NCBI GenBank assembly: GCA_021791545.1
Contig: JAJYWL010000016.1
Span: forward strand, 9,533 to 73,532
Source: a bacterium
Lineage (GTDB): Bacteria; Patescibacteriota; Microgenomatia; Levybacterales; UBA12049
DNA: 64,000 nt
Reading direction: 5' to 3'
Shown: positions 1 through 2,525 of the stretch, one piece after another
Position numbering within the stretch: position 1 is the stretch's first letter
How the letters are laid out: the number at the start of each line of letters is the position of its first letter
The notes under the pieces: model-generated
The model's database searches: none
What the model was told of the DNA's origin: nothing
The model's input: only the letters and a program-made list of their open reading frames with translations
Position numbers and translations under genes: made by a program

Positions 1-450
1 TCCCTTTCCTTCATTTAGTTTTTCTCTAAAATCAAGGATTTTTCTTAGTCCAATCAAATTCTTATGTTCTCCTTTTTCCATTAATTTTGCTATTTCACAA
101 AAAATTGAAAAATTCTTCTTTTTTGAATCTGAAAGAACTGGGAATCTTTGAAAATATGGAATAACTTTCTGAATTATATCCTTTGGATTTGTTACATCAA
201 AAGAGTGTAAGTTATCAATTTTTCTGACTTTAATAATTCCGCAATCCAACTCCTGCTTTAGTAAATAAAGCATAGAAGGATCCTTTTGTGAAACATTAAA
301 GCTCATTACAACTTGCCAATTAACTTTATAATCAGCTTTTCTTCGTAAAGAAACATTGAAACTACCTTCTCCTTCGACAAATCCTGCTAGGAAAAATCCA
401 AGTTTTTCCTTATTCAAGTCTTTCCTGCTGATTTTCCGCACTGAACTCAT
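1..450 (-). CDS. LAGLIDADG homing endonuclease encoded inside a group I intron. It is 3'-truncated by the window edge, with about 150 aa visible.
   Basis: Minus-strand translation from the ATG at 450 reads MSSVRKISRKDLNKEKLGFFLAGFVEGEGSF..., which carries the LAGLIDADG motif LAGFVEGEGSF. The frame stays open to position 1. It is absent from the ORF track only because it is incomplete. Confidence 0.8.
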   Translation of the reverse strand, partial: MSSVRKISRKDLNKEKLGFFLAGFVEGEGSFNVSLRRKADYKVNWQVVMSFNVSQKDPSMLYLLKQELDCGIIKVRKIDNLHSFDVTNPKDIIQKVIPYFQRFPVLSDSKKKNFSIFCEIAKLMEKGEHKNLIGLRKILDFREKLNEGKG

Positions 451-558
451 TATCACCATAATACATGGTAGAGTCAGATACTTCAACCGTTTGTTTTTCA
501 ACAACGGTACGGTTTTTCCAGCATATAGTCGACTTTTACAACTACAACAACTTTTGGT
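1..558 (-). mobile_element. Group I intron (5' part) inserted in 23S rRNA near E. coli positions 1917-1923. It carries the homing endonuclease ORF, and its 3' part lies beyond the window start.
   Basis: The 23S exon, read in the rRNA sense, ends ...GTAAACGGCAGCAGTAACTATAA at plus 560-600. This matches E. coli GTAAACGGCGGCCGTAACTATAACGG. The following 558 nt are AT-rich non-rRNA sequence containing the LAGLIDADG ORF. The boundary is good to about 5 nt. Confidence 0.65.
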
Positions 559-2525
559 TTTATAGTTACTGCTGCCGTTTACTGGAGCTTGTATCAAAAG
601 CTTGTACCTTGCGGCACTTCACCCTCGATAATTAACTTACCAGCACTGGGCAGGTGTCAGCCCCTATACTTTGCCTTTCGGCTTTGCAGGGACCTGTGTT
701 TTAGATAAACAGTTGCTAAATAAACTTTTGCTGCGGCCTACAAACTAATGTAGGCAAGGCATCTCCCATAGGTTACGCCTAGCTTTTTTGCCGAGTTCCT
801 TGAACATTTTTCTCCCGATCGCCTTAGTCTTCTCGACCAATCCACCTGTGTCGGTATACGGTACGGTAAAATATGAATTTTCCCATCTTACGATGCGCTG
901 ATGAAACTTTTCTCGGAAACTGAAAGCTATCAAATCGGAATTATTGCTAACCCCTTTCATTCGTAGCTCAATTAAACACGATAACGGATTTGCCAGTTAC
1001 CACTATCTCACTACTTAGACTCTACGAATAGAGCTTGACTCTTCCACTTTCGTTATTCCCTCAGAATATTCACACTCTGTAGTCGAATTTCAACGACTTA
1101 TCCATCAGGTTACCCCCCAATTAAACGAGGAACACCCTTAGGACCGACTAACCCTCCGCTGACTTACATTGCGGAGGAAACCTTGGATTTTCGGCGGATA
1201 TGTTTCTCACATATCTATCGCTACTCATACCGGCATTCTCACTTCTATCCGCTCCACCAAACCTTACAGTTCAGCTTCGCCGCAAATAGAACGCTCCCCT
1301 ACCAATTCTTACGAATTCTACGTCTTCGGTAAAAAGCTTAATCCTCGATAAATTTTCCGCGCCAAATATCATCCTCCAGTGAGCTGTTACGCTTTCTTTA
1401 AAGGATGGCTGCTTCTAAGCCAACCTCCTGGTTGTCTATGAAATTTGACTTCGTTCAAAACTTAGCTTTTATTTAGAGACCTTAGACGGTAGTCAGGGTT
1501 GTTTCCCTTTTGACCCATCAGCTTAGCCCGACGGGACTGACTAGTAGTGTAATTACATCTGCATTCGGAGTTTGATTAGTTCCTACATCTTGCGACGCAG
1601 GTAACCATTCAGTGCTCTACCTCAGTGTATACGTAAACTACCGCTATACCAAAATATATTTCGGGGAGAACCAGCTATCTCTGAGTTCGTTTGGCATATT
1701 GCCCCTAACCTCAGGTCATCCCAACCAATTGCTGCTGATACGGGTTCGGGCCTCTTGCAAGCTTTCGCTTGCATTCACCCTGCCCAAGGTTAGCTCACCC
1801 AGTTTCGGGTCTAATGACTGCAACTAAATTGCCCAGTTAGGGCACGCTTTCACTTTGCCTTCTCAAGATATACTTGATTAAGCTAACGCTGCAATCAATA
1901 ACTCACCGGTTCATTCTTCAATAGGCACGACATCATCCTTGCGGACTCTGTCTGCTTGTTAGTCGACAATTTCAGTTCTATTTCATTCCCCTCCCGGGGT
2001 GCTTTTCACCTTTCCATCGCTGTACTAGTTCACTATCGGTAGACTTTGATATTTAGCCTTGGAACGTGGCCGTCCCGGCTTCCCACAGGGTTTCACGTGC
2101 CCCATGGTACTTAGGAACAGACTATCGGAGTTCTTCCTTTCGCTTACGAGTCTTTCACTCTCTATGGAGGACCATTCCGGATCCTTCTGCTAGAAAAAAC
2201 TACATCGAATATCGTCTGCCCTACAACCCCAACAATAAATTGCTGGTTTAGGCTGTTCCGCTTTCGCTCGCCGCTACTGACGGAATCTCAATGATTTCTA
2301 TTCCTGGCGCTACTAAGATGTTTCAGTTCACGCCGTTCCCCTCCAAACACTATATATACCCTTACGGATACATTTTTATGTTTGGACACCGAATAAATCG
2401 GTAGGTTGCCCCATTCGGAAACCGCCGGATCAAAGGTTTATGACACCTCCCCGACGAGTATCGCCGCCATATGCGTCCTTCCTCGGTCAAAGCCTCCTAG
2501 GCATCCATTATCGACATTATGAGTA
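559..2525 (-). rRNA. rrl: 23S rRNA, 5' exon. It covers roughly E. coli 1-1917 and is interrupted by the intron.
   Basis: The reverse complement near 2440-2525 reads ...GGATGCCTAGGAGGC...GAAGGACGCAT, the conserved 23S 5' end (E. coli GGATGCCCTGGCAGTCAGAGGCGATGAAGGACG). The reverse complement of 566-700 matches E. coli 1830-1917 (ATCAATTAACCTTCCGGCACCGGGCAGG...). Exon length is 1966 nt against 1917 nt in E. coli. Confidence 0.85.

Follow-up and report, generated by a model that had tools for sequence, protein, structure and literature searches.

A group I intron with a LAGLIDADG endonuclease gene after position 1917 of a CPR/Patescibacteria-type 23S rRNA gene

The stretch analysed here, called the window throughout, comprises 64,000 nucleotides (nt) of bacterial DNA (contig JAJYWL010000016.1, positions 9,533 to 73,532; assembly GCA_021791545.1). 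On the minus strand, window 1-2533 contains the 5' two thirds of a 23S ribosomal RNA (rRNA) gene, present in a single copy, of a bacterium of the candidate phyla radiation (CPR)/Patescibacteria type. This gene is interrupted by an insertion that bears an open reading frame (ORF); the insertion is a group I intron, its core divided in two by the ORF, and it is referred to below as intron 1 or, after its site, as the L1917 intron. Features of the gene and of the intron are on the minus strand of the window; those beyond its left edge are given on a matching contig, L001.

The interrupted 23S rRNA gene

The minus-strand match to the Rfam model LSU_rRNA_bacteria (RF02541) starts at window 2533 and scores 1363 bits. 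In a local run on window 1-800, the 23S alignment has high posterior probability until ...GCAGCAGUAACUAUA and collapses afterwards; its confident part ends with ...ACGGCAGCAGUAACUAUA. Alignment with MAFFT against E. coli rrlH places the break directly after E. coli U1917, at window 562, with window 561 as the first intron base. Exon 1 (E. coli 1-1917; window 562..2533; RF02541, local alignment, and MAFFT) thus defined ends with ...GCAGCAGUAACUAU in the loop of helix 69, and the exon sequence bordering the intron reads ...GUAACUAU. The G+C content is 0.41-0.50 in the rRNA and 0.27-0.37 in window 1-500. The first-pass annotation, made from the sequence alone, had let the 23S gene run from about 2525 into AT-rich sequence, with an insertion point at E. 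coli 1917-1923. This picture was borne out, with the start moved to 2533, the end set at 562, the drop in G+C confirmed, and the insertion point narrowed to the bond after U1917.

The part of the locus to the left of the window was obtained through the protein. A protein search returned P0001 (179 amino acids, aa; 100% identical to the ORF fragment), and the contigs encoding it were fetched. Two of these, L001 and L003, from two ENA assemblies, match the window's reverse complement with 0 mismatches along the whole 10,459-nt overlap; because of this identity L001 is taken to continue the window itself (window position = 10460 - L001 position). A further contig, L002 (NCBI GCA_027372415.1, DAHXJC010000012.1), is 99.8% identical across the intron.

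In the MAFFT alignment of the L001 23S gene with E. coli rrlH, position 1917 is followed by an insertion of 708 nt, intron 1 (L001 9899-10606). Its last base is G (L001 10606), and the 23S sequence restarts exactly at 1918 with zero residues lost; removal of the intron in silico gives an unbroken match to E. coli across 1917/1918. It had been claimed that the window begins inside the intron and that the rest lies to the left, which is correct, and that the missing part is the 3' half, which is not: 147 nt (21% of 708) and 26 codons lie outside. Leftward extension recovered both the 3' end (G) and the 3' exon (from 1918) in the 100%-identical L001.

Two more introns follow on L001, and only intron 1 reaches into the window. 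Intron 2 lies after E. coli 1931 (L001 10621-10866; 246 nt; Rfam 66.6 bits), and intron 3 after E. coli U2500 in the peptidyl-transferase region (L001 11415-11731; 317 nt; ends with G; Rfam 56 bits); both are ORF-less. At all three insertions a U precedes the intron, a G ends it, and no E. coli residue is missing at the borders. Introns 1 and 2 are separated by a mini-exon of 14 nt, AACUGUUCUAUGGU (E. coli 1918-1931); mini-exon and L1931 intron together occupy L001 10607-10866, which is 147-407 nt beyond the left edge of the window, and the exon sequence after the L1931 intron is AGCGAAGUUCC. The L1931 intron is found in some relatives (e.g., L006, L009, L011, and L012) and is absent from L005, L007, L008, L010, L013, and L014.

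Contig L002 differs in its 5' part (L002 1-1405). From L001 9155 on (about 1.2 kb into the 23S gene) it is 99.8% identical to the locus of the window; its first 1.3 kb are only 87-95% identical and hold an insertion of about 290 nt with an 83-aa GIY-YIG ORF in the 23S 5' domain, near E. coli 284. This divergence is either a mosaic from rRNA-gene assembly or a polymorphic second mobile element.

Ribozyme core and reading frame of the L1917 intron

The window holds the first 561 nt of the 708-nt L1917 intron (window 1..561; alignment, structure and covariation, and an Rfam match of 22.8 bits on the 3' part of the intron). The remaining 147 nt (L001 10460-10606) contain P6', J6/7, P7, P3', P8, P7', P9, P9.1, and the terminal G. 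Helices P1-P9.1 were drawn by hand on the window's copy (L001) and compared among homologues fetched by means of the endonuclease, namely 10 loci from genomes and 39 from metagenomes, with 44 introns complete; intron 5' ends in the homologues were set by requiring the downstream guide sequence. The resulting alignment, A1, has 40 introns in 36 distinct rows. The same arrangement is found in all 49 related loci, and in all 44 complete homologues the intron is preceded by U and terminates in G.

In P1 (window 540..567), exon AACUAU (567-562) is base-paired to the internal guide GUAGUU (545-540), and U1917 forms a wobble with G at the 5' splice site. In 36 of 36 distinct homologues none of the six pairs varies, the U·G wobble included. 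The P1 loop holds AGUU, judged by eye to be able to pair with AACU of the 3' exon (P10). There is no P2. The 5' strand of P3, GUCGAC (528..533), has its partner GUCGAC outside the window, at L001 10521-10526; both bases have changed in five of the six P3 pairs, and pairing is kept in 100% of cells.

The P4-P5 domain (426..523; minimum free energy (MFE) fold and covariation) consists of P4 (UGCUGG/UCAGCA; 523-518/431-426), which is invariant, and of P5 (512-507/441-436), the P5a hairpin (506-488), P5b (476-471/448-442), and the P5c hairpin (470-454), each of which shows covariation. MFE folding of window 424-525 recovers the P4-P5abc helices (z = -3.44), and that of the 3' half recovers P7, P8, P9, and P9.1. 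Two other assignments were tried in this domain and rejected: 'AGUGCGGAAA' as the P4 5' strand, which is the P5 3' strand according to alignment and covariation, and placement of G129 in P5b, where covariation favours P5. Four loci (L008, L010, L028, and L035; A1 columns ~63-215) have a different, longer P5 extension (CCGGUUGUAUAUG...) and no conserved ATG at the usual place, so that their reading frames must begin elsewhere.

The 5' strand of P6, CUUGAAU (412..418), pairs with AUUCAAG, which lies 447 nt downstream and outside the window, and the body of the ORF fills the loop L6 between them; five of the seven P6 pairs are changed on both sides. P7 (GACUAUA/UAUAGUC) is pseudoknotted with P3. 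The G of GACUA and the C of UAGUC form a G-C pair in 36 of 36 rows (A1 pair 715-777), the presumptive equivalent of the guanosine-binding pair G264-C311 of Tetrahymena. In P8 all five pairs covary, and in P9 six of seven; P9 is capped by a GCGA loop of the GNRA type and followed by P9.1. Between the end of Q (the P4 3' strand element) and R (the P7 5' strand element) there are 468 nt in 36 of the 44 introns; in seven the spacing is 467 or 469 nt.

Across A1, 93.4% of cells in the drawn structure hold standard pairs; sliding the partners by 1-3 columns lowers this share to 29.6-44.5%. Both bases have changed in 37 of 73 pairs, and of 500 shuffles, 0 attain any of these measures. The compensatory changes lie mainly in P3, P5, P6, P8, and P9, and P1, P4, and most of P7 never vary. 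The P7 and P3 core that an intron of this class should possess is therefore present as part of a P3-P9 core that is backed by covariation among the 40 aligned introns. On intron 1 the group I model of Rfam (RF00028, Intron_gpI) reaches 22.8 bits (E 0.002-0.014), with a match confined to the R-S-P9 segment (the P7 strands and P9). The gathering threshold of 50 bits is the curators' detection cut-off and no defining feature of the biology. The expected match to this model was thus found in weak form on the 3' part and stayed under the cut-off; the two neighbouring introns score above it. The low score is explained by the ORF in L6, which splits the core and leaves the 5' half about 470 nt away, a gap that the model cannot bridge. 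No group I match came from an Rfam scan restricted to window 1-800 (E <= 10); the model depends chiefly on P7-P9 (the R and S elements), and these lie outside the window. A degenerate DNA pattern (exon/P1/P3/P4) for ORF-less L1917 introns gave no match in metagenome contigs.

The endonuclease gene (window 1..450; codons 1-150 of 176; translation, Pfam, PDB matches, and P0001) begins with the ATG at 450, its product starting MSSVRKISRKDLNKEKLGFFLAGFVEGEGSF..., and the frame is open for 150 codons to the window edge. An upstream in-frame ATG at 459 gives MVIMSS..., with 153 codons in the window and a full product of 179 aa, which is P0001. The last 26 codons and the stop, located in P8, are beyond the window. 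The fragment in the window matches Pfam LAGLIDADG_1 (E 3e-22; 79.9 bits, cut-off 23.1; profile positions 1-101 of 102) and, in the PDB, solved LAGLIDADG meganucleases down to E 8e-38; full-length P0001 has one Pfam domain. The best PDB matches fall on single domains of fungal mitochondrial enzymes that have two (I-SmaMI, I-OnuI, 4lq0); I-AniI is also among the matches. The LAGLIDADG motif is LAGFVEGEG (364..390), with the metal-binding acidic residue present as Glu, and GFVEGEG is kept in every intact homologue. These matches uphold the proposal in the first-pass annotation that the ORF encodes a LAGLIDADG endonuclease.

Gene and ribozyme share sequence at both ends. The start codon is at the P5b/P5c junction; codons 1-13 form the 3' strands of P5b, P5, and P4 as well as the P6 5' strand, and in this copy the last ~15 codons traverse P6', J6/7, P7, and P3' into P8. 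Many relatives have their stop at P6' and a product of 163 aa, from which it follows that the folded domain is encoded in L6 and that only the unstructured tails are dual-coded. Nucleotide diversity at codon positions 1/2/3 is 0.20/0.12/0.45 in the L6 body and flat, at 0.16/0.19/0.18, where the ORF overlaps core helices; since the third position is the most diverse in the L6 body, the endonuclease is under purifying selection. Two relatives have decayed ORFs, as the gain-decay-loss cycle of homing endonuclease genes predicts: L051 (774-1502) by a frameshift (118 aa) and L052 (678-1320) by a 97-nt deletion. The ribozyme core is intact in both.

Proposed splicing and homing, and rival explanations

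It is very probable that the 23S gene is interrupted after U1917 by a 708-nt group I intron with a LAGLIDADG_1 homing endonuclease in L6; splicing and homing of this intron are inferred by analogy with known introns. In the precursor rRNA, the guide GUAGUU and exon AACUAU would form P1 with its U·G wobble. An exogenous guanosine docked in P7 would attack the 5' splice site, and the terminal G would then take the same P7 site, the exons being ligated to a continuous helix 69. The protein of 176-179 aa, which presumably recognises the L1917 site, would act as a homodimer and cut intron-less 23S rDNA around 1917, the presumed target being the sequence that spans 1917/1918 (...ACGGCAGCAGTAACTAT joined to AACTGTTCTATGGTAGCGAAG). 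Repair templated by an intron-bearing copy would copy the intron in.

Several points weigh against this interpretation. The membership of intron 1 in group I, its score being under the Rfam gathering threshold, rests on the hand-drawn structure. The slid-partner control is somewhat biased toward the structure, which was drawn from one aligned sequence (L001). One P7 pair (A1 columns 720/772) is U-A in 24 and C·A in 12 of the 36 rows, the other six being essentially invariant; the C·A pair may be a tolerated mismatch or a bulge beside the guanosine-binding site. P10 in this copy amounts to about 4 bp by visual judgement. Splicing and exon ligation are predicted from structure only, and cleavage, cut site, and dimerisation of this protein are predictions from its family. 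The twofold symmetry of the presumed target is weak, with 6 of 11 positions around U1915, the centre of the helix 69 loop; it was considered as evidence for a homodimer and dropped.

A different origin of the insertion would be an RNase III-type intervening sequence, excised without religation so that the 23S rRNA is fragmented and the ORF is a passenger. Bacterial 23S genes are known to harbour such sequences, some CPR insertions are suspected to be of this type (Tsurumaki et al. 2024, J Bacteriol, PMC11270868), and a score of the group I model below threshold would suit them. It is highly improbable here in view of the complete group I core with covariation in P3, P5, P6, P8, and P9 and of the splice-site U·G pair and terminal G, invariant in 36-44 homologues. 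Moreover, RNase III intervening sequences are known from helices 9, 25, and 45 and not from the loop of helix 69, and a break in helix 69, an essential inter-subunit bridge, would be unlikely to be tolerated. That the junction is an assembly artefact, a 23S fragment made chimeric with unrelated AT-rich DNA, might be suggested by the ease with which rRNA genes mis-assemble in metagenomes and by the mosaic 5' 1.3 kb of L002. The probability of this is nonetheless negligible: the junction sequence is identical in three independent assemblies, homologous junctions are present in 44 further contigs from different samples, and the 23S sequence restarts exactly at 1918 past the insertion.

The intron may also be real and its protein no longer a homing endonuclease, serving as a maturase that aids ribozyme folding or drifting to loss. 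LAGLIDADG proteins can serve as maturases, e.g., I-AniI, which is among the PDB matches, and purifying selection is compatible with either role. The intron may moreover be fixed across many Microgenomates-type lineages, leaving few empty target sites, and the ORF is broken in L051 and L052. On the other hand, the ORF is intact here and bears the mark of purifying selection (0.45 at third against 0.12 at second positions), the catalytic acidic residue is kept in all intact copies, and the introns with broken ORFs keep their core, so that the ribozyme has no obvious need of the protein; furthermore, a related CPR enzyme is an active endonuclease (PMC11270868). A protein without homing function is therefore considered unlikely.

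For the homing intron preferred here, the overlap of gene and core has a further consequence. With both ORF ends written in ribozyme helices, translation and folding would be mutually exclusive on one RNA molecule. The overlap might conceivably act as a switch in which the folded core hides the start codon and a translating ribosome blocks splicing; such a regulatory role is conjectural and, in our estimate, doubtful. If it were true, the switch would limit expression of the endonuclease from an rRNA precursor, which in this genome comes from a single rRNA operon.

Host, neighbouring features, and known systems

The host was assigned from the labels of relatives and from 23S similarity. The nearest relatives of endonuclease and 23S gene are labelled Levybacteria, Gottesmanbacteria, Woesebacteria, or 'Patescibacteria group', and 23S exon 1 is 74-82% identical to these relatives and 70% identical to E. 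coli. Two contigs with the same intron and endonuclease, L011 (CAZNKB010000029.1) and L014 (CAZQTD010000001.1), carry the title 'uncultured Gammaproteobacteria'; in 23S exon 1 they are only 72-73% identical to E. coli, no closer than the CPR loci, and their helix 69 is as in CPR, so that the label looks doubtful.

The rRNA unit has the order tRNA-Ala(UGC), 23S, 5S (window 2533-2732; L001 7728-12290), with protein genes directly upstream. The gene for transfer RNA (tRNA) Ala(UGC) (window 2659..2732, minus strand; ARAGORN, Rfam) directly precedes the 23S gene on the same strand. No 16S rRNA gene was found within the whole 64-kb window, and 16S is thus unlinked to 23S. On L001 the 23S model covers 7931-12126, about 4.2 kb, after which the 5S gene follows. 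Compared with E. coli, the non-intron 23S sequence of L001 is without segments 1166-1173, 1690-1708, 2132-2157, and 2807-2814 and has small extras of 34 nt after 284, 14 nt after 1590, and 10 nt after 133. Short ORFs within the rRNA gene and introns are annotated as genes in public assemblies (window 745-960, minus strand; window 1612-1827, plus strand; L001 9500-9715, 10570-10794, and 11659-11934; and others); they are almost certainly spurious, because they have no family matches and overlap rRNA or ribozyme sequence.

Elsewhere in the window are an AdoCbl-II (cobalamin) riboswitch aptamer (33506-33579, minus strand; Rfam 41.6 bits, threshold 36.5), a transfer-messenger RNA gene (52720-53083, plus strand; 103.8 bits) adjoining a cluster of five tRNA genes (53752-58266), and two more tRNA genes (27080-27153 and 29403-29474).

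For annotation, a 23S gene that measures about 4.2 kb and contains three introns will be truncated or split by automated rRNA callers. The proper label is 'intron-encoded' for the LAGLIDADG gene and 'spurious' for the small ORFs in the rRNA, and the three introns should be cut out before 23S phylogeny. The covariation-tested L1917 structure and the presence or absence of the L1931 intron could be of modest use for studies of intron spread in these bacteria and open no new question.

Among known systems, chloroplast 23S introns encode homodimeric homing endonucleases of the I-CreI/I-CeuI type. These enzymes likewise have a single LAGLIDADG domain of ~160-180 aa and keep the acidic residue at the motif end. 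The insertion sites differ, however, and the best PDB matches of the protein described here are domains of two-domain fungal enzymes and not I-CreI; a homodimer is predicted by analogy. Coxiella burnetii has a 157-aa LAGLIDADG protein encoded in its L1951 intron (table in PMC1995217). Likened by description, this organism also has 23S group I introns in the same region, but its ORF is in L1951 and not in L1917, and the host is a gammaproteobacterium. A second C. burnetii intron is reportedly located at L1917, both introns flanking a short exon.

Other L1917 introns are those of Synechococcus sp. C9 (DQ421380; 743 nt; homing endonuclease of 181 aa) and Thermotoga subterranea (AJ556793; 774 nt; 168 aa) (Haugen et al. 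2007, PMC1995217). Compared by description, they share with the present intron (708 nt; 176-179 aa) the site and similar sizes, a single-motif LAGLIDADG ORF in P6 that runs through P7, P3, and P8, a complex P5, and the lack of P2 (PMC1995217). As in the present locus, the interrupted gene of Synechococcus C9 also contains an L1931 intron, so that the same 14-nt exon must exist there; here this neighbour is ORF-less. Unlike in the Synechococcus and Thermotoga introns, the frame described here starts upstream of P6, at the P5b/P5c junction, and overlaps the 3' strands of P5b, P5, and P4, and its stop is in P8 and not in P9. A similar overlap of ORF and ribozyme at the 3' side has already been described for the Synechococcus L1917 intron (PMC1995217).

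A close counterpart is found in CPR bacteria themselves, and published work bears out the remark in the first-pass annotation that introns of this sort are recurrent in rRNAs of CPR and organelles (PMC11270868, PMC1995217). According to the CPR survey, 82% of CPR 23S genes have insertions, 45% of these being Rfam group I introns; LAGLIDADG_1 genes, mostly single-domain, predominate at 1917, 1931, 1952, 2593, 2604, and 2657; and the single-domain CPR enzyme I-ShaI, which belongs to the neighbouring site class 23IS7 and not to the 1917 class, cleaves its own insertion site and dimerises (PMC11270868). Class 23IS6 (1917) agrees with the present element in host group, position, family, and single-domain architecture and in the group-I-like flanks around a central ORF, and CPR 23S genes have several introns each, clustered in the 3' part, as here (PMC11270868). 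The element is accordingly an ordinary one for CPR/Patescibacteria, a selfish element of a kind already catalogued there and in a few other bacteria, and it adds one more well-resolved case to the documented pattern of 23S genes crowded with group I introns that bear single-domain LAGLIDADG genes. There is no difference of substance from 23IS6: insertions were classified in the survey by Rfam matches, with no structure for the 1917 class in the text consulted, and here that structure was drawn and tested by covariation.

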